Source: a virus. Taken from it: 64,000 bases of DNA. Under the pieces are notes generated by a model. It saw only the letters and a program-made list of their open reading frames with translations, made no database searches and had not been told where the DNA came from. The stretch is from the IMG/VR virus record IMGVR_UViG_3300021976_000001; one strand, written 5' to 3'. Below are positions 5,979 through 51,240 of this stretch, piece after piece. The translations under genes were made by a program, and so were the position numbers. Each line of letters opens with the position of its first letter. Position 1 is the first letter of the stretch.

Positions 5979-8900
5979 AGAATGGTTACCTTTCCGTTCG
6001 TGACCATTGATCGTGCACCGTGCCGGCTGCTGGTGCGCCCCTGTATGCCGCCACCGCCCGTACCCACACCACTAGGCAACTCATCTGGCGGAGGCAACAA
6101 CCGCACTATCGTCAGGCCCGACTCAGTCTCTACGACCTGCGCCACCAGACGTAGCTTGGAATGCAACCAGGCTTGAGCTAGCTCCATCTCCTGAGCCTGG
6201 CCCAGCACGTGACCCTTCACGTGTGCGAATGCCTGGGCTGCTTCCGTCTCAACAACTTGTGCAATAGCCTTCCGCTTCAATGCGGTAAAGGGCATTGCAA
6301 TTTCTGTCTCTAAGGCGGTGTTAATCCTACCAGGTTGCGTGAATAGCCGGGCAATCTCTACTTCAATGGCCTGACCAACCAAGCGGGTCTTCAGGCGTGC
6401 AACGGCCGTGGCGGTCTCAGTTTCCACAGCCTGAGCCAGTACCCTGGACTTCACCCTGGTAAAGGGCTGCGCTATCTCTGTCTCTGTGACTAGCCGCAGC
6501 TGCCCGGGCGCCACAATTGTGAGTGCTGTCTCCATTTCAACGGCTTGCACTAGTGCACGCATCTTCAAACGTGCTATGGCAAATGCCGTCTCAGTCTCTA
6601 CACCCTGCGCAACAAGCCTACTCTTGACACGAACCACAGCCTGTGCCGCTTCTGTTTCAACTGCCTGTAGCAAAGACCGTGTCTTGACAGCAGTTATAGG
6701 CTGCGCTGTTTCCAGCTCCACAACCTGCCGCATCAGGTCCAGAACCAAGACGTCAATAACCTGACCCGTCTCCAGCTCCACCGCCTGGGCAAGGATCTTG
6801 GACTTCAGCCGGGCCACCGCTTGCGCCACTTCGGTCTCGGTGGCCTGCCCTATGGCAAGCAACTTTCGCCCGGTAACAACCAGAGCGGTCTCTGTCTCAA
6901 CGGCTTGTGCCGCAACACGAGTCTTGAGGCGCCCCGTAACTGTCGCTGTTTCGGTCTCCAGAGCCTGCGTAAGCGGCTTGGCCTTGACCCGTGTGAAAGT
7001 CTGCCCAACCTCGTTCTCAAGGGCCTGGGCGACCACACGGGCCTTCAAGCGCCCTGAGAGCGTAGCAACCTCGGTCTCTACTGTCTGAGCAAGCGTACGA
7101 GCCTTCACCCGGGTTACTGGCTGAGCTACCTCCACCTCAACCGCCTGCGCCACGGCCTTTGTCTTGAGCCTGGCTATGGGCTGAGCAATCTCTGTCTCCG
7201 TAACTTGGTTGAAAGGCGGCATCACTAAGCCGGCTTCCCACTTCACTGCGAAGGTAGCGGTGCAGTACTCTTCAGTTGAAGCAATGGTGAAAGGACCAGG
7301 ATCCTCAGAACCAGTAGTCAACACCTGCAATGCGTAAGCCAGGCTCACACCGTCGGCAGCGTCACCAGAGTTAACCGCAGCGCCGTCCACGTAACCAGCC
7401 GGATATGCCGTAGTAGCTACGACACCGCTGTCATAAGCAGCCGCCGCTATTGAAACTATTTTTTCAATCGCCCACCCTGTCGGATTCAACGCAGGAGAAT
7501 CAAGTGAGGTAGAGGTGTTCCCCTGAAAAACAGCAACTTCTGGAGGCACCGTCAAATCCACATTTGTCAAACGCCATACCTTGTGTGCACTGGTTTGGGC
7601 CACGTCTGTAATTGCTGTCTCAGTGGCACCTTCGCTACCGTCTGCGATCTTGTAGTAACCCCGCAAGGAGCACAAATCTCCGCTGTGAGCAGTGTTGCCC
7701 AAAGACACCCAGTTGTCTGCAAAATCACCAGACACAATAGGACGAGCGTCGTAACTCTGTAGCGCCAACAACAATCCGCCACTACCAGCGGGCATGTTCA
7801 CCACGTGACTAGTGCTGTTGGTTGGCACTGCCGTTTCCGCTTCACTTACGACAGGCCAGTCTCCAGGCCGAATGCGCCCTGCTGTTTCCGTTTCAACGGC
7901 CTGACCAAGCATCCGAGTCTTGACCCGAGCTATGGGCTGCGCCATTTCAGTTTCAACTGCCTGCCCAGCACTTGTAATAAAGCTCTGAGAGGAGTTGGTG
8001 CCAACGATTCCACCATACGAACAATGCGAGTAATCAACTATCCCTTCGTGAGCAGCAGCTACCGCTACACGACCAGTTCCCCTAGGCGTTGGGATGGTGG
8101 CAATGTCGGCAGCGGCATCGGCACCGCCCTTGCGCACGCAGGTACCAGTACCCCCGACAGCTATATCGGCGCCTAGGCTTTCGTACATCACCTGCGTCGC
8201 ATTGATTCCAGTTACAAAACCATTGAGCGTGTCAAGTCCGGCGTCTGTGACGTCCACCGTAATGATGTTGCCCACCATAAAATCGTGAGAACCAATGGTC
8301 AAGGTAGCGGTGCCACCGGTTCGGCTACTGGCGGTGACCGTGTACGTCAGGTGGGCCTTGTCCAGATCAATGGTGAACGCATGATTTGGATCTGTCCAAC
8401 CCGGAAGAGACTGATGTCTGCTCCAGCAGCGAACCTGGAGGATCGTACCTGAGACACGCACTTCCATCCAGTAAGGAAACAGACGCTCGTTGCCTGTAGC
8501 GGAAGTACCAACAACTGCGAGATCGTGCTTGCCGTCCGTGTATTTGAAGGTGGTAGCACTGGGTATCTCAATGACCTTGACCTGACGCACATCGCTACTG
8601 CGGTCTTTGACGGTACCGCTACCGCCCTCGTTGGCGCCTACCTGCGCCCATGTGATCTGCGTAGCGTTGAAGCCCGTAACAGTGAAGGTGCCACTGAACG
8701 TACCTGCACCGAATAGGAAGGCGATGTCGCCGGTCTGCATGCCGTGGCCACTGCCCAGCGTGGCCGTCACGACATTGCTGGCACGGTTCAGTGTAGAACC
8801 AGGAAACTCCTTGGTCCAAGAGATGTTCAGGTAATCGTCAATGACCATTTCATGTGCCACTGACGTTACCGCTGTCACCACACCGCCAACCCTGCTGCCC

Positions 8901-32147: not shown

Positions 32148-35100
32148 TTAGTCTTCAAGCACCCAGAGATAGTTAACGGACAGCATACGTCTTGATATGC
32201 CGTGCCACTTCTTGCCTTTGATCAACACAGCATCGTTCTCTATATCAATGCTCCATACGTCATCCCTCCAGGTGTTGTAAACAAAGCGATTAACTGAGAT
32301 GTGGACCGTACCGGTTTCGTCCTCGCCTTCCATGGTGACCCACTCATTAAGGTCTGGACGCTTGACGTCGTTAGGGTCAAGGACTTCACCGGTCTTGGAG
32401 TGGTGTACCTCAAACAGATCTTTGAGGTTGCGGTACTTGATCACACCCAGCCACACACACTCAAAGTCTGTCTCGGTCTTATCGTAAGGGATATCTTCCG
32501 AAGTGGCCGTGGGTGCCGGCAGTCGGTACGTCTGCCCCGGTGACCGGAAACGCCCGTCCTCGTCAATCATGTCAACACCACTGTTGAGAACTGTACGGAT
32601 GACGTGCAACTTCTTCTTGAGACGATGCACCCCAAACGGATCCTCTTCCTCTGCGAAGTCTGTGATGGTGGTCACGGTTTTAGGACCTATGCCACTAATG
32701 CGAGACAAGTGCTTCCAAGTGGTGCCGTTGTCTGCATCACGCAGGAAGTCGGTAATGGCACGGGCCTTCACCTCGCCTATGCCGGGCACCTGCAACCAGC
32801 CAGCCTGAATGCCCCTGCCACCCACCGACCACGTGATCTCACTGTCCAGCCCTATGGAGCTATGCGGTATGTCGTGTGACAGCGCATCACGCAGTAGCGA
32901 CAGCTGCTTATCGTCAAACTTGCGTAAGCAAGCTATGAAAAACTCACGAGGGTAGTGCCGCTTCAACCACATGGTCCAGTAGGCGAGTAATCCATAACTG
33001 ACGCAGTGCGCAGCGTTATTTTTCATCACAACTCCATTGGCTATGTAGTTGTGGTTGTTGTCATTCATCTCTATCATGTAGACATATTCCATTTCATCCA
33101 TAGAAACTATGGAAACAACCCCGGAGGAAACAGTTGGTTTGCCCACCGAGTCACGACCAAGTCTTTCACCCTTGGAATAGTCAAACTTCTTATGACAGGA
33201 GTTACACAGCCTTAGGATATTGTCAGGAGTGTGATACTTGAGATAGTCTCCGCCAAGATCCGTCAAGCCAACTACGTGAGCGAATTCTAGGTCGTGCTTG
33301 CCACCACTACCGACGGCACCGCAACTCTCACATTTGTTACCTGAACGATCAAGAACTATTTGCTCTGCTTCTCTAATTGCCCCGGTGCGACCGTCTATCC
33401 ATGAAGGATTCCCAGAGCCTTTTTCAAAACCTTTTTTAGAGTTATCATAGGTTGATTTTCGGGGCTCGGTACGAACCTTGCTGGGTTGCTTGTATTGGTA
33501 TTCGGTGTCTTCACATATGATATCGTCTCCAACCCCCAGTTCAAAGATCTCGGTGTATCCGTGCGTCGTAAGAACACGATGAACTCCGGTACCCTTAAAG
33601 GACATACCATTTTCAAGAGTCACCATATAAATCGGCTGGGTAATTGGTGACCTGTCTATAGATAGGAACTGGCGAGGTCTAACACGGCCGTCCCCATCCA
33701 TTTGTTGCAGAGTGATTCGTTTGCCACGTTGTCCATAACGAAGCTTCTGTCTAAGTGAATTGCGCTTGTCCGGATGGTTGTATGCCTCCCATAGCTGTTT
33801 CATGGTGTATGTAGCTCCACCACTGGAGCCTCTGCCGCCTGTCTGAACCACTGCGTCTCCGGTCAAGCAGAATGCATAGGCGCCCGCCGTTGCCATCAAA
33901 GACCACACCTTGATGGCGTCAGCTTCTTCCATTCCATGAGTAGCAGCACCCTCCACAAACTTGTGCTGAAGCTTGTTGAACTCCTGCTCGCCACGCTTCT
34001 TTGAGATGATGCGTCGTACACGACCGGCTTCTAGGTACGAGAACTCACCCAGCTCCCGGCATATCTGGAGTATCTGCTCCTGGTAAACGATCTGGTACTG
34101 GGTGTGCTTGGTGATGCCGTCCACAATATCGTTGAAGCGCACCGCTGGTTTGCGGTCAAACTTCACGTCAATGTAGTCACCAGTTGCACCAGAGTGTAGT
34201 GGACCAGGGCGGCTAAGCGCATTAATGTCTGCCACTTCCATGAAGTTGTCAGGCTTCACACCGCTGTTGACCTGTCGTGTGGCACGACCGTCAAACTGGA
34301 ATATGCCTGTCACATCCTGCTCCCGGAAACCCAGTAGTGTCTCCTTGTCGTCAAGAGGCAGATTGTATAGCTCCTCCAGTGTCATGCCGATTTGCTCAAG
34401 ACATATACGAATCATGGCCATGGTCTTCAGCCCCAGTAGATCCAGCTTCAAGGCGCCCAGGTATTCCACGTCGTACTTGTCTAGCGAGATCACTTGCAAC
34501 GGCTCGCCCGTTTCCGGGTCCAACTTGATGCCGCCCTTGCTATCTGTCTTAGAGTAGATAGCACAGAAGTCGGTCAGGGGTGCGTTGGCCACCACCAAGC
34601 CGGCCGCATGCACCGACATACCACGGACGTTACCCTCAAGACGTTGCGCCTTAAGCAGGTTTGGCCAACGCTTGAATATGTCAGCCACCTGCGGAAACAT
34701 CTCAATGGTGTCTTCCACGGTGGCATCCGGCCGCAGGTCGCCGGACTTGCGCTCAATCAACAGGTCTTTGACAGTATCCAGGTCACTACGGCACGCCCAG
34801 TTGTCACGATAGAGGGCCATCTGCACGTCGTTGAGACTGTTCTTGCCCTTGTATTTGATAAACGTACCGATGCTGCCAACTCTATCGCCGCCGTACTTGT
34901 CGGCCAGGTACTCACGGATCAGATAGCGCTTCTCATCATCAAAGTCCAAATCAATATCAGGAGGATCGTGCCTGTTCTTATCCATGAAGCGTTCAAACAC
35001 CAGCACCGGAAAGTGCATTGGGTTCACTTCAGTAATACGCAGGATGTAGCAAACCAGCGAGGCTGCTGCCGAGCCTCGTGCTGGGCCGACTGGGATGCCA

Positions 35101-36356
35101 CTGTCTTTGGCGTAGACAGTGACGTCCGCCATCACCAGAAAGTAGTCAACGAACTGCTTCTCTTCAATTAGTTCCATCTCGTACTTCACCCGAGCTATGT
35201 ACTCAGCCTTTGTCACTGGATCCAGCTTGCGGAAGCCCCGGTACTTCCAGCCGTCGTTAACGAGCTTGCGAAACAACGTGAGGTTGTCGGGTACACCGGG
35301 CGGCAGCGGGTAGCGCAAGTTGGTGACCTTAGGCAGCCGCACCGTGCACCGCTGAGCTATCTCACGGCTGTTGCGGATGGCTTGTTCGGCCTGCGCCTTG
35401 CTGAGACCGGTGCGTACCAGCCGCTTGTAGATGTCCTTGTCGGAAAGAGGACACAGTGGGATGTCGTAGCCCCAGGTTTGATCTAGCTCCTCAGCAGTCT
35501 TCTTACCACCAGACCGCACCGAGTGAAGAATTGCCTGCATTTGGCCTTCATCCGGAGTGGTGTAGTGCGCATCCAGTGACGCAACCAGTGGAATTCCCAG
35601 TTCTCTTGACATCTTTGCCAATCCGACATTGATGTTGTTCGTCTTTTCAAGCTCAGGGAACGCCTGGACTTCAAGATAGTACGCATCTCCGAGAAGTCGT
35701 TTGAAACGAGCAGCGACAGCCTTAGCTCGTGGATATGAAGCGTCGCCCACTTCAATGTTCTTTCCACCAGTGAGAGAGGTAGACAACAGACTACCCTGAC
35801 AACCCGAAAGCACAACAAGCCCATCGCAGTACTCCTTCAGAAGTGCTCCATCAATGGTCGGTTGATAGTAGAAACCCTTGTACCAAGCCTGACTCACCAA
35901 CCGAAGCAGATTGGCGTAACCGGTCTGGTTCTCAGCCAGCACCGTCAGGTGATTCTTCTTCATGGTGCGCTCTTCACCAATGTCACCACAGTAGAACTCG
36001 CAGCCGAACAGCGGCTTCACACCGTGCTTATCGCAGGCTTGCTCGTGCTGGACATGCGCAGTCACGTTGCCGTGATCCGTCACTGCGAGAGCGTACATAC
36101 CCATCTCAGCAGCCCTGAGACTGTGCTGGGCAGGCGTACCGAAGCCGTCCAGATACGAAAATGTCGTGTGATGATGAAGCGAACAGAACACCATGTCCCC
36201 AGCGGACTTGAGGCTCTCGCCCTCCTCCCAGACCACCGCCTTCAAGCCGGCTCGGCTGAGGATCCTTAGGCGTCGTGCTTCTGCCTCAGTGGTGGAACTC
36301 TTAAGAGCCTGGCTCTCCGAAGAATGAATCGCCACTGTCGTCAAACACCTCCACAA
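32148..36356 (-). CDS. dnaE: DNA polymerase III alpha subunit (DnaE-type) interrupted by an intein
   Basis: PHP motif FCSLHHHTTFSYLDG. The conserved ...AYAF/NAAHCVSYGLLAYWTMWLKRHYPREF aligns with [30 protein letters not shown]. The probable true start is MVFCSLHHH at 36194. Confidence 0.85.
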   Translation of the reverse strand: MWRCLTTVAIHSSESQALKSSTTEAEARRLRILSRAGLKAVVWEEGESLKSAGDMVFCSLHHHTTFSYLDGFGTPAQHSLRAAEMGMYALAVTDHGNVTAHVQHEQACDKHGVKPLFGCEFYCGDIGEERTMKKNHLTVLAENQTGYANLLRLVSQAWYKGFYYQPTIDGALLKEYCDGLVVLSGCQGSLLSTSLTGGKNIEVGDASYPRAKAVAARFKRLLGDAYYLEVQAFPELEKTNNINVGLAKMSRELGIPLVASLDAHYTTPDEGQMQAILHSVRSGGKKTAEELDQTWGYDIPLCPLSDKDIYKRLVRTGLSKAQAEQAIRNSREIAQRCTVRLPKVTNLRYPLPPGVPDNLTLFRKLVNDGWKYRGFRKLDPVTKAEYIARVKYEMELIEEKQFVDYFLVMADVTVYAKDSGIPVGPARGSAAASLVCYILRITEVNPMHFPVLVFERFMDKNRHDPPDIDLDFDDEKRYLIREYLADKYGGDRVGSIGTFIKYKGKNSLNDVQMALYRDNWACRSDLDTVKDLLIERKSGDLRPDATVEDTIEMFPQVADIFKRWPNLLKAQRLEGNVRGMSVHAAGLVVANAPLTDFCAIYSKTDSKGGIKLDPETGEPLQVISLDKYDVEYLGALKLDLLGLKTMAMIRICLEQIGMTLEELYNLPLDDKETLLGFREQDVTGIFQFDGRATRQVNSGVKPDNFMEVADINALSRPGPLHSGATGDYIDVKFDRKPAVRFNDIVDGITKHTQYQIVYQEQILQICRELGEFSYLEAGRVRRIISKKRGEQEFNKLQHKFVEGAATHGMEEADAIKVWSLMATAGAYAFCLTGDAVVQTGGRGSSGGATYTMKQLWEAYNHPDKRNSLRQKLRYGQRGKRITLQQMDGDGRVRPRQFLSIDRSPITQPIYMVTLENGMSFKGTGVHRVLTTHGYTEIFELGVGDDIICEDTEYQYKQPSKVRTEPRKSTYDNSKKGFEKGSGNPSWIDGRTGAIREAEQIVLDRSGNKCESCGAVGSGGKHDLEFAHVVGLTDLGGDYLKYHTPDNILRLCNSCHKKFDYSKGERLGRDSVGKPTVSSGVVSIVSMDEMEYVYMIEMNDNNHNYIANGVVMKNNAAHCVSYGLLAYWTMWLKRHYPREFFIACLRKFDDKQLSLLRDALSHDIPHSSIGLDSEITWSVGGRGIQAGWLQVPGIGEVKARAITDFLRDADNGTTWKHLSRISGIGPKTVTTITDFAEEEDPFGVHRLKKKLHVIRTVLNSGVDMIDEDGRFRSPGQTYRLPAPTATSEDIPYDKTETDFECVWLGVIKYRNLKDLFEVHHSKTGEVLDPNDVKRPDLNEWVTMEGEDETGTVHISVNRFVYNTWRDDVWSIDIENDAVLIKGKKWHGISRRMLSVNYLWVLED
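33018..33869 (-). mobile_element. intein (~284 aa) with an HNH endonuclease domain
   Basis: Block A CLTGDAVV, block B TGVH, HNH motif CESCG...H...N...CNSCH, and C-terminal YIANGVVMKN. Removing it leaves a DnaE of about 1118 aa, which is a normal length. Confidence 0.65.
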
Positions 36357-47923: not shown

Positions 47924-48466
47924 TCATCGGGATACCTTCACAACGTCGGCCACGTAGACCGTACGGCTGGCTCCTGCGTAGTTCTCCACCACCGACACCT
48001 GAAGCGGCTGGTCGCCCTCCGGTCCGTAGCTGAACTCCGTGGCGTACCGGCAGGAGATCTCCTCGGTGTACTTGCGGCCGTACACAGTCCGCTGGACAGT
48101 GATCTTCACGGGTCGCCAGGACACCGAGCCGGTCTTCTCGTTCTCCACACGCACGCCCATCAGGGCTGCTTCAATCTCACCCTGGTCCGTGTCGTCGTCC
48201 CATTGGGTCCTGAGAGCCCGCTGACGCCGAGCAGGCGTGGCGTGCGCCCCGTTGGTGCCGGCACTGGGTATGCGCCCGCCTAACGGCCTGCTGTCGTGTC
48301 GTGAGAGACCCGTCAACTCCTCGTAGGCGTGCTGGGCGTAGCGCCCACGGTTCTTCTTGCCTTCGCCCAGGTTAAGAGCAACAGCCACCTGCTTCCAAGA
48401 CTGACTCTTGGCGTCCCGTTCCTCTATGATTTCCTCGGCCGTGCAAGGCCATTGCGTGCCAGTCAT
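47924..48466 (-). CDS. hypothetical protein (180 aa)
   Basis: ORF track. First gene after a terminator. Confidence 0.5.
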   Translation of the reverse strand: MTGTQWPCTAEEIIEERDAKSQSWKQVAVALNLGEGKKNRGRYAQHAYEELTGLSRHDSRPLGGRIPSAGTNGAHATPARRQRALRTQWDDDTDQGEIEAALMGVRVENEKTGSVSWRPVKITVQRTVYGRKYTEEISCRYATEFSYGPEGDQPLQVSVVENYAGASRTVYVADVVKVSR

Positions 48467-49483: not shown

Positions 49484-49990
49484 TCAGCCGACCTGCTCCG
49501 CCGGGCGCTCCGAGGAGTCGCTGGCAGGAGTAGCGGTCGTTGACTTGCGGGTCGCCTTGCGGGCGGTACCCGAGGTGCCCTTGTTGGCAGGCGTCTTGCG
49601 ACCACCCAGGGCGGACTGGGACGGCTTGAGACCGTCCTTGCGCTGCGTGCGGGTGACCGTGGTCACCTTGGAGCTGACGTCGCTGCCCTTTCGGGCAGAC
49701 TTCTTGACCGTGGCCTTGGGAGCCGTGGTCTTCTCGGCAGGCTTGGGAGCCTCGGTGCCCTTGCGGTACCGTCCGCCGGTCAGCGGGCGGCTCTCGTAGT
49801 GGGCGCCCTTACGGCCGTGGCCCTCGTCGTACATGCGACGAACCGTGCTGCCGCTGACGGTGACCCCGGTCTTGCCCTCTCGGATGGCGAGCTTGATCTT
49901 GGTCCACGACAAGTTGTCCGTGTCCCGCAGCTTCACAACCTTCTTGATGAGGGCTGCATTGCGGCTGCCGTCCTTGTTGGTTGCCTTCAT
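49484..49990 (-). CDS. HTH-like DNA-binding protein with long Lys/Thr/Ala-rich basic tail
   Basis: Start at MKATNK after CAGGAG. LSWTKIKLAIREGKTGVTVSGSTVRRMY looks like a helix-turn-helix. First gene after the non-coding region. Confidence 0.55.
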   Translation of the reverse strand: MKATNKDGSRNAALIKKVVKLRDTDNLSWTKIKLAIREGKTGVTVSGSTVRRMYDEGHGRKGAHYESRPLTGGRYRKGTEAPKPAEKTTAPKATVKKSARKGSDVSSKVTTVTRTQRKDGLKPSQSALGGRKTPANKGTSGTARKATRKSTTATPASDSSERPAEQVG

Positions 49991-50177
49991 GGTTCTATCT
50001 CCTGTTCTGTTTGGTGAAGTTAATCCCCACCACGTCCAGCCTGTACTCACGCCTACCTACACTGACATCCGGTGCCCTACGAAAGACCGTGGTCATGACG
50101 CTCTGGGCTGTGGACCGTTGAGGGGAGGTACTAGCAACTGGTGAACCCCATGCGGGGTTACGTGGTGAGGAGAAGAA

Positions 50178-50249
50178 CGCCGGGCTCTACCAATTGAGCT
50201 ACCAGCCCTCGTAGTGGACTGGACGGGATTTGAACCCGTATCTCCGGCC
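50178..50249 (-). ncRNA. circularly permuted tRNA-like module (T arm - capped acceptor stem - D arm)
   Basis: The minus strand reads GGCCG GAGAT ACGGG TTCAAAT CCCGT CCAGTCC A CTACGA GGGCTGG TA GCTC AATTGGTA GAGC C CGGCG. All stems pair. U8, A14, G18G19, A21, G53-C61, TTC and A58 are present. Confidence 0.55.
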
Positions 50250-50250
50250 G

Positions 50251-50319
50251 TGGCCAGGTAGGGAGTTGAACCCTACTTACCCGTTGTCGGGGCGCTACCG
50301 AGTTGAATTCACACTGGCC
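50251..50319 (-). ncRNA. degenerate tRNA-like element (possible tRNA pseudogene or mimic)
   Basis: Acceptor GGCCAG/CTGGCC is 6 bp. The T arm TAGGG-TTCAACT-CCCTA is good. There is no D stem, and the anticodon-like loop CGACAAC lacks U33. Confidence 0.4.
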
Positions 50320-51036
50320 GTGTTGAGCGGTTTCGCCTAGTGGCCGTGCTCAGGGCCTCTGATCCCTCGCCCTTTGCAGGCTCCGGGTAGAGCTGGTGAA
50401 AGCTCTGCAGGAAGCTGGGACGTGGGCTTAGCGTCTGTTTGACACGTCTTAGGTGCGCTTATCTGCAATCGGCACGTACGCCCAACTCCCTGCGGAGCTT
50501 TCACCTTTGTGGCGAAGACCCTGCAGGAAGCTGATTCGGTATTCCCTCCTTGTCCTCTTGCCGGTGCCATCGCACGTCCTTCCCAGAGCCAGTGCCATCA
50601 CCAGGGCTGGTGTGGTCTGCGGTCTGAGAGGCGTGACCCGTGGAAGAGTCAGATACCCCGCAGCTCCCTGCGGAGCCTTCGCTTGTCCCTTGTTTCGGGA
50701 GGCTGTGACCCCTCCGCCGGCCCTACTGTTGGACTTGGCCGCCACCATTTTCGCCTGGTGCTGGCGGCAGATCCTTGGTGCGAACCGGGCGCCCTACTGG
50801 CTTGCCGGCCACTGGAACCTGCTGGCTGCCTTGGCCCCTTGCGGGGCTGGCTTGCTGAAGATCAATGTACTCTCACCAGGAACAGATCGCAAGCCCAAAT
50901 ATGAGAATTTATAAGAAAGTCTATGACCAGGGAATTTACGAGGGCGAGCCAGGTGACAGGGCACGGTCCAGCCTGCCACCCGGCTTCTAGCCCCTGTTCC
51001 CACCAGATCGCCAGACCATCCAGTGGGAAGCCCTCG

Positions 51037-51240
51037 TCACGCAGGTGGGCCAAGCGTGGGTGGTGTCTCACCCAATTGCTGACGCAACCATGCGAGAGCC
51101 GTGTTCAACCCGACTGCAAGCATCGGGACCCACCAGTACGGCAGATCCGCCGTTGCTGCGATGGCGGCTGAAGTAGCGGCTACTGCTCCAGTCCAGAACA
51201 CCTTGAAGAAGATGTCCCTGTAGTTGACTGAACCACCCAT
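51037..51240 (-). CDS. holin candidate (67 aa)
   Basis: Immediately downstream of the endolysin. Hydrophobic helices (FWTGAVAATSAAIAA, WWVPMLAVGLNTALAWL). Confidence 0.55.
   Translation of the reverse strand: MGGSVNYRDIFFKVFWTGAVAATSAAIAATADLPYWWVPMLAVGLNTALAWLRQQLGETPPTLGPPA

Follow-up and report, generated by a model that had tools for sequence, protein, structure and literature searches.

Can the parts of a transfer RNA (tRNA), rearranged in circularly permuted order and deprived of the anticodon arm, form a working element of a phage genome, and what kind of element would this be? The question is raised by positions 50179-50248, on the minus strand, of a 64,000-nucleotide stretch of viral DNA (IMG/VR record IMGVR_UViG_3300021976_000001), hereafter called the window. 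A sequence-only reading had described a permuted tRNA-like module at this site and had compared it to the tRNA-like domain of the bacterial Y RNAs called YrlA, whose protein partner is Ro. As judged from its sequence, the module is a tRNA-Ala-derived, circularly permuted tRNA-like domain without anticodon arm. Our preferred interpretation, to which we assign a probability of roughly 45%, is that it represents a Ro-independent, YrlA-like domain derived from tRNA-Ala, which resides in a structured leader RNA and would be read as a tRNA by host enzymes.

Structure of the permuted module

On the minus strand, the module folds in the order closing helix, T arm, loop-capped 7-bp acceptor stem and D arm. 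Its parts are the following:

50244-50248, minus strand: 5′ strand of the closing helix, GCCGG, the counterpart of the anticodon-stem 3′ strand in a tRNA (minimum free energy fold and YrlA covariance-model alignment)
50240-50243, minus strand: 4-nt junction AGAU, the variable-loop equivalent with G46 and U48 (sequence; aligned with the YrlA consensus junction uGUu)
50223-50239, minus strand: T arm ACGGG-UUCAAAU-CCCGU, near-identical to the T arm of the Ro-linked YrlA of phage Boopy (sequence, fold and YrlA alignment)
50215-50222, minus strand: 3′ strand of the acceptor stem, CCAGUCC (50222-50216), and discriminator A73 (50215), matching the tRNA-Ala genes L155-L162 exactly
50209-50214, minus strand: 6-nt loop CUACGA capping the acceptor stem (sequence), with a predicted RNase P site A50209/G50208 by analogy with Mycobacterium smegmatis YrlA (PMC4201824)
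50202-50208, minus strand: 5′ strand of the acceptor stem, GGGCUGG, with G3·U70 (the 25-mer GGGCTGGTAGCTCAATTGGTAGAGC is a tRNA-Ala(CGC/UGC) sequence)
50184-50201, minus strand: U8 and A9 (50201-50200) and D arm GCUC-AAUUGGUA-GAGC (50199-50184) (sequence, fold and YrlA alignment)
50179-50183, minus strand: 3′ strand of the closing helix, CCGGC (fold); 50179 is C or U among contigs, which changes the pair from G-C to G·U

RNAfold returned the four helices exactly, for 88-nt and 341-nt stretches alike, in agreement with the permuted T arm, capped acceptor and D arm order that had been read from the sequence. Pairing is complete, with 21/21 base pairs intact, and the tRNA core nucleotides are kept as previously described. 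The closing helix had been given as only 4 bp, but GCCGG and CCGGC can form five. Of the anticodon arm there is only this 4-5-bp helix: the loop is absent, and so is most of the stem. Both the G·U pairs and the polarity of the T loop fit the minus strand only, which is the strand of every gene in the window. A public contig, k141_1203606, revealed two differences to the window in 16.6 kb, at 50808 and 50179, both of them noncoding and C versus U on the RNA strand. The latter is the sole polymorphism within the module and preserves the outermost closing pair as G·U. Another public contig of the same phage ends at 50194, inside the module. The assembly is circular and the polymorphic site only 15 nt away, so that this end probably arose as an artefact of assembly.

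Descent from tRNA-Ala

The 25-mer GGGCTGGTAGCTCAATTGGTAGAGC, which makes up the 5′ half of the permuted tRNA, was found in eight genomes of a species collection, and in each of them it constitutes the 5′ end of a tRNA-Ala(CGC or UGC) gene. These genes also possess the acceptor 3′ strand CCAGTCC and A73, so that acceptor stem, A73 and D arm are identical to those of the module. Because every match of the 25-mer is a tRNA-Ala 5′ end and the acceptor 3′ strand and A73 are shared as well, the module is, on these sequence grounds, a derivative of tRNA-Ala. As a tRNA-derived sequence it lies, by this comparison and by the Rfam match described below, far beyond chance. The alanine identity set (G3·U70 and A73) noted by the sequence-only reading is present and, given that acceptor stem and D arm equal those of real tRNA-Ala genes, genuine. 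We also considered using the tRNA-Ala match to assign a host and rejected it, as the matching genes stem from metagenome-assembled genomes of Planctomycetota and Patescibacteria, while the nearest terminases of cultured phages belong to Arthrobacter, Microbacterium and Gordonia phages, i.e. to actinophages.

Relationship to Y RNAs and transfer-messenger RNAs

In the whole window, YrlA (RF02553) gave the only Rfam match at E<=0.1. It is located at 50180-50247 and scored 38.8 bits (E=5.3e-5), with all aligned pairs formed; the aligned part, model positions 23-85 of 114, is confined to the tRNA-like domain. The score is lower than the RF02553 gathering score of 69 bits, and a full-length YrlA match was not reached. 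At gathering thresholds there was no Rfam match in the window, the Rfam tRNA model (RF00005) remained unmatched at E<=10, and ARAGORN called 0 tRNA or transfer-messenger RNA (tmRNA) genes.

How the YrlA score has to be read became clear from a control. The junction of two tandem tRNA-Asn genes (L071) reached 33.9 bits on the YrlA model, and Ro-linked phage YrlAs reached 32-37 bits. Because a tandem tRNA junction scores like Ro-linked YrlAs, the score shows the permuted order of tRNA parts and not family membership; it neither includes nor excludes the module, and it was dropped as a proof of membership after this control. Chen et al. (2014, PMC4201824) cautioned about the same artefact. The likeness to the tRNA-like domain of YrlA as such is nevertheless supported, both by the covariance-model alignment and by the fact that Ro-linked YrlAs are the nearest phage matches of this order without flanking tRNAs.

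Several other assignments were rejected. A junction of two intact tRNA genes does not apply, as there is no tRNA on either side and the 5′ neighbour is a different tRNA-like element (TLS1, see below), unlike the tandem-tRNA comparison loci Sham and L071, in which a tRNA is called on both sides. A canonical tRNA gene would need a contiguous cloverleaf with anticodon arm, which is lacking. A circularly permuted tRNA gene of the Cyanidioschyzon type needs all tRNA parts to yield a decoding tRNA, and the anticodon loop is missing here. For the two-piece permuted tmRNA (RF04321), the model tmRNA_permuted scored 19.8 bits, over the tRNA-like part only, and tmRNA 14.3 bits, compared to a gathering score of 47 bits, and ARAGORN reported no tmRNA.

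Three defining features of Y RNAs were tested and failed: the Ro-binding motif, a neighbouring Ro gene and a full model match. The Ro-recognition motif GNCGAAN0-1G does not occur on the RNA strand of 49991-51036, where 0.74 occurrences would be expected by chance. We therefore do not file the module as a Y RNA; by analogy, it would work like the tRNA-like half of one.

Compared to known systems, the module has in common with M. smegmatis YrlA (Chen et al. 2014, PMC4201824; RF02553) the T arm, the capped 7-bp acceptor stem, the D arm, the closing helix and the tertiary core, but it lacks the Ro-binding 5′ motif and stem as well as a Ro gene, and it sits directly behind TLS1 within a leader of about 1 kb. 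With the tRNA-like domain of two-piece tmRNA it shares the permuted order of acceptor, T and D-like parts and G3·U70 with A73. Unlike this RNA, it has no mRNA-like tag frame or pseudoknots but a full D arm, and the tmRNA models score at noise.

Absence of Ro from the phage genome

The window belongs to a siphovirus-like soil actinophage. Its genes all lie on the minus strand, and those identified include genes for the tape measure protein, tail proteins, endolysin, holin, an SNF2 helicase, a DnaE polymerase with a putative intein, ThyX and a primase-helicase. Since public contigs of 66.7-66.9 kb hold the same genes in circular permutation, the genome is by this comparison essentially complete at about 66.7 kb, and the window lacks only 2.7 kb of capsid-region genes.

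Neither Ro/TROVE nor RtcB was detected in Pfam scans of open reading frames (ORFs) of at least 300 aa, and tblastn with BRock Ro as query gave no match to Ro. A hidden Markov model (HMM) built from five phage Ro proteins found nothing at E<=10 among ORFs of at least 60 aa in the window and the missing 2.7 kb; the same model recovers Ro in two loci left out of its building. The earlier remark that no Ro or RtcB gene was recognized in the window is hereby extended to the whole genome of about 66.7 kb.

A side observation concerns the DnaE-type DNA polymerase III alpha subunit (32148-36356, minus strand, 1402 aa). Residues 903-1113 match an intein splicing domain below threshold (30.0 bits versus a cut-off of 35.8 bits), which suggests that the gene holds an inserted intein.

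The leader region and TLS1

The surroundings of the module comprise the following features:

49991-51036, minus strand: gene-free structured region of 1046 nt, a putative long leader or noncoding RNA, between the holin gene (51037-51240) and p168 (49484-49990); it holds the module and TLS1
50251-50319, minus strand: TLS1, a conserved tRNA-like element one nucleotide 5′ of the module, with homologues at L129:5900-5963 and L164:3091-3156
49992-50178, minus strand: lineage-specific hairpin domain 3′ of the module; the next 185 nt fold into a long hairpin
49484-49990, minus strand: p168, the first gene downstream, whose product begins with a small helix-turn-helix-like domain, followed by a long basic tail in which K, R, T, S and P abound

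No genes are called within 49991-51036 on public contigs, and no Rfam family matched in the leader region or in TLS1. A protein-coding reading of the conserved noncoding block was rejected, since tblastx scores are alike in all six frames and no gene is called there.

TLS1 consists of a 6-bp acceptor stem, the T arm UAGGG-UUCAACU-CCCUA, a discriminator A and a short hairpin that replaces the anticodon arm. The sequence-only reading had regarded the DNA beyond the closing helix as not tRNA-like; this does not hold for the 5′ flank, which is TLS1, ending one nucleotide upstream. To find relatives, homologues of p168 and of p180, another gene of this phage, were used and led to two related lineages, L129 (Logan SRR26786849) and L164 (Logan SRR25722025). 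In the three TLS1 sequences, 7/12 pairs of acceptor and T stem show compensatory changes, a value matched by 0/500 shuffles, and slid registers give none. The mismatch U7·C66 is invariant in all three. An Rfam match on the L129 copy of TLS1 (16.6 bits, E=2.3) was not significant. In the 5′ domain of the leader (about 50640-50900), RNAalifold detected 10 compensated pairs. Due to these compensated pairs among relatives, TLS1 and the leader are, on comparative sequence evidence, a real, conserved and structured RNA. The region of about 1 kb may represent a new large phage noncoding RNA or leader.

L129 has the gene order of the window and a gene-free stretch of 809 nt. Identity to the window exceeds 90% in several of its noncoding blocks and amounts to just 45-72% in the flanking proteins. 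In L164, the 5′ RNA domain is present and TLS1 is situated 2 kb further on. The distance from TLS1 to the start codon amounts to 37 nt in L129, 28 nt in L164 and 260 nt in the window. Tandem tRNA genes at this site in related phages, which according to the sequence-only reading would mark the module as a deletion remnant, were not seen: L129 and L164 contain neither tandem tRNAs nor the module.

Searches for further relatives gave little. Among cultured phages, megablast and blastn revealed no close DNA relative of the region or of the upstream RNA. IMG/VR yielded no relatives via p168, the endolysin or the 362-aa tail protein, and none by patterns of the module or TLS1; the conserved RNA blocks, used as exact patterns, were absent from IMG/VR and from the genome collection. 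In distant loci (identified by the tail protein in metagenomes and by p180), no noncoding RNA homologue was found by blastn, no D-arm motif was seen and only one tRNA was present (L143). None of the related loci contains the D-arm motif. The long contigs examined closely (L165, L168 and L170) do not show a large gene-free gap at the homologous position.

Within the leader, two blocks stand out, at about 50640-50900 and at 50331-50370. Between 50396 and 50504 there is an imperfect hairpin of 24-25 bp with a 61-nt loop, which has one mismatch fewer on the minus strand; at the homologous place, L129 has a hairpin of different sequence. Possible long-range pairing of the module's acceptor 5′ strand with 50595-50611 was judged to be chance, as this segment folds locally into a hairpin of its own and lacks conservation in L129.

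The hairpin domain and p168

The 5′ strand of the hairpin downstream of the module (50179-50167, CGUUCUUCUCCUC) is able to form a duplex with the Shine-Dalgarno sequence and spacer of p168 (50003-49992, AGGAGAUAGAAC). The duplex has a predicted energy of -14.1 kcal/mol, which is equalled or surpassed by 33/1000 shuffles (p about 0.03), and a competing 12-bp helix between 50160-50171 and 50024-50035 contends for the UCCU. As a modelled structure, this pairing could act as a translational switch, a weak suggestion at best.

For p168 and p180, neither Pfam nor PHROG gave a match. The p180 gene (47924-48466, minus strand) appears to be a paralogue of p168; the window p168 product and the L129 homologue of p180 are 36% identical over residues 16-74.

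Similar modules in other phages

In cultured phages, matches to the T-to-D arrangement are of two kinds, tandem tRNA junctions (Sham, OneUp) and unannotated or misannotated modules beside Ro genes. The nearest matches outside tandem tRNAs are YrlA modules at most about 1.2 kb from Ro in BRock, pSt2308 and the Gordonia Forzavirus group. These Ro-linked actinophage YrlAs (BRock, pSt2308, Boopy and other Forzavirus members) exhibit about 80% nucleotide identity to the module from T to D arm. The module of Streptomyces phage BRock shares with it G3·U70, A73, the 7-bp acceptor stem and a 6-nt loop starting with CU, and Gordonia phage Boopy has almost exactly the same T arm. What separates them is their context. 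The Ro-linked modules are located 0.1-1.2 kb from TROVE/Ro genes, in arrays of tRNAs and Y RNAs, in phages of about 113-114 kb, whereas the window phage has a genome of 66.7 kb with no tRNAs and no Ro gene.

A degenerate scan of IMG/VR for a T loop followed by a D arm gave 122 matches. Among them are 12 stand-alone permuted modules with complementary acceptor strands, stand-alone meaning that no tRNA call overlaps (with the exception of L081, whose ARAGORN call as tRNA-Thr was judged spurious). A Ro gene is present in the fetched locus of 4/12 modules and absent in 8/12, which represent seven distinct sequences (L017, L039, L065, L069, L079, L091 and L100/L106); as only 2.8-15 kb were fetched, a distant Ro gene is possible for these loci. 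Between L091 and L100/L106, which form one family, the flanks are conserved and the acceptor hairpin is wholly replaced, yet paired. Permuted tRNA mimics without a nearby Ro gene may be a broader phenomenon.

Some observations were made on the comparison phages themselves. In BRock, an unannotated array of about four Y-RNA-like units lies just upstream of the Ro gene gp191 (L001:1100-1580, i.e. 103365-103845). Its units contain the recurring motifs CGAUGCG.AG, UACUUCA and CUUUUUCUAG, and two of them have YrlA-type tRNA-like domains. An 11-mer, GAUUAACUUCA, common to this array and the window was judged to be probably chance. Boopy gene 158 (L172:2936-3049), annotated as tRNA-Leu, overlaps a YrlA-like module whose acceptor stem has 5 bp and a UUCG cap. 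The Ro-like gene 164 is located 1.2 kb upstream of this module; the tRNA annotation is probably wrong. Finally, the contig L121 (IMGVR_UViG_3300044712...) encodes a permuted tmRNA (RF04321) at 6477-6635 on the minus strand with 64.3 bits, above gathering, and also holds a Ro gene, a YrlA-like module and many tRNAs.

Discussion

If the module is a Ro-independent tRNA mimic, the following course of events is conceivable. The module would be transcribed from the minus strand within a long structured leader or noncoding RNA, ahead of the first gene after the lysis cassette. Given the conserved, structured and covarying RNA around it, transcription of the site is very probable. Without any Ro protein, the RNA would fold into the L-shape of a tRNA and be handled as such by host enzymes. 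We infer this recognition from YrlA of M. smegmatis, whose acceptor stem likewise counts 7 bp: RNase P cleaves that RNA in vitro, and in vivo it is both cleaved and CCA-extended (PMC4201824). By analogy with this RNA, RNase P would open the capping loop by a cut 5′ of G50208, and the 3′ side would be trimmed to A50215 before CCA is added. The loops would be modified by enzymes of the TruB and Dus types. The outcome would be a two-piece tRNA-like cap with alanine identity. Together with TLS1, the module would punctuate the leader, while the hairpin domain behind it can, as predicted, occlude the ribosome-binding site of p168. Processing of the leader, or its insulation from the downstream mRNA of the first early gene, is by analogy a likely consequence, and titration of host factors that bind acceptor ends or the elbow of tRNAs a possible one.

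Two well-known cases offer parallels. The precursor of two-piece tmRNA is cut in the loop between the acceptor strands, which results in two paired pieces. In MALAT1, the tRNA-like structure mascRNA ends a long noncoding RNA, is recognized by RNase P and RNase Z and separates the upstream from the downstream RNA. With the latter, TLS1 and the proposed processing may be compared, although mascRNA is eukaryotic and without sequence relationship, and processing in the window is only proposed.

A number of observations weigh against this interpretation. Besides the YrlA score below gathering and the comparable score of a tandem tRNA junction, it has to be considered that a consensus scan found no promoter or terminator, that no CCA is encoded after A73, and that the thermodynamic z-score of the 88-nt stretch is an unremarkable -1.48, as usual for tRNA-sized RNAs. 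Moreover, the module is absent from L129 and L164, both of which keep TLS1 and the 5′ RNA domain. It is part of about 225 extra nucleotides specific to the window lineage, and no homologues were found in which covariation of its own stems could be followed. Its intactness could simply reflect a recent insertion.

In the most serious alternative, which we hold to be quite possible, if not our first choice, the module would be a remnant or passenger without function: a piece of two tandem tRNA-Ala genes, or of the YrlA gene of another actinophage, that was recently brought into the noncoding leader by illegitimate recombination. Its restriction to one lineage and the ability of any permuted set of tRNA parts to score like YrlA are as expected for such a remnant. 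The same is true for GGGGUUCA..CCAGUUGC (about 50148-50133), a downstream stretch with a faint likeness, to the eye, to a T arm and an acceptor 3′ strand that have decayed. The 3′ half of the module and the 3′ part of TLS1 are 79% identical, which suggests a local duplication, and the sampled contigs are near-identical, so that they give no evidence of purifying selection. On the other hand, a remnant of tandem tRNAs requires two breakpoints that spared both perfectly pairing closing strands while the outer halves were lost, and no tRNAs exist at the site in either relative. The domain boundaries are precise, TLS1 abutting the 5′ end of the module with one nucleotide between them, and all 21 base pairs are intact. 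Furthermore, it is rare for a phage to retain 225 nt of useless sequence within a regulatory RNA that is otherwise highly conserved, and the rest of the insert is an ordered hairpin that reaches the ribosome-binding site.

It is improbable that the module is a canonical YrlA which works with a Ro/Rsr protein of the host and tethers or gates host Ro and polynucleotide phosphorylase during infection. Its fit to the tRNA-like domain of the YrlA model and the Ro-linked nature of the nearest phage matches would suit this idea, as would the actinophage-like terminases, given that some actinobacteria encode Ro and YrlA (PMC4201824). But only model positions 23-85 of 114 align, the Ro-recognition motif is absent from 49991-51036, and TLS1, one nucleotide upstream, leaves no room for a 5′ Ro-binding strand. 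In addition, the complete phage genome does not encode Ro, whereas published YrlAs lie at most 4 kb from Ro on the same strand (PMC4201824).

A two-piece, tmRNA-like tRNA domain that is charged with alanine and serves trans-translation is very improbable. The order T arm, acceptor 3′ strand, loop and acceptor 5′ strand along with G3·U70 and A73 is that of permuted tmRNA genes, and both tmRNA models matched weakly. The scores are far below gathering, though, and ARAGORN found no such gene. The module contains a full D stem-loop, while to our knowledge tmRNAs lack one. By inspection, the 190 nt downstream harbor no tag frame ending in ...LAA or ...AA and no series of pseudoknots, and the closing helix has just 5 bp.

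A feature of the DNA rather than of an RNA (a site of replication or packaging, or the core of a phage attachment site, attP, copied from a tRNA gene of the host) is scarcely credible: it is common for attP sites of phages to reproduce the 3′ part of such a gene, and a public contig does end inside the module, but this end is probably an artefact, no integrase was found among ORFs of at least 300 aa, an attP would hold the tRNA 3′ part alone with no pairing 5′ half after it, and the G·U pairs are strand-specific.

Returning to the Ro-independent tRNA mimic, a bolder version of this proposal, which we regard as unlikely, would make the module one case of a wider, undescribed class of permuted phage tRNA mimics that are cut by RNase P, extended by CCA and possibly charged with alanine. 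Such an RNA might be a sponge, soaking up host factors that bind to tRNAs at the acceptor end or elbow, or attack them there (such as defence toxins or enzymes of tRNA processing and modification), or a switch, in which recognition by tRNA enzymes is coupled to the unmasking of the p168 ribosome-binding site. In either case, the module would work together with TLS1 and the structured upstream RNA of about 1 kb.

What is new about the module is the presence of a YrlA-type tRNA-like domain without a Ro partner; its kind is otherwise known. Mimics of tRNA that belong to the Y-RNA type have so far been defined by their partnership with Ro, and a well-formed YrlA-type domain with alanine identity in a complete phage genome possessing neither a Ro gene nor a Ro motif suggests that the tRNA-like domain can serve by itself. 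If functional, it would offer a simple system to study the role of the tRNA-like half of Y RNAs, be it as a substrate of RNase P, the CCA-adding enzyme and alanyl-tRNA synthetase or as a decoy. If it is a mere passenger of recombination, it would still provide a snapshot of how permuted tRNA-like domains arise. TLS1 and the leader of about 1 kb merit follow-up at least as much as the module itself. Taken with the modules elsewhere that have no Ro gene in the fetched loci, they suggest that phages make use of tRNA-shaped RNA in gene expression in a way that has been under-described.

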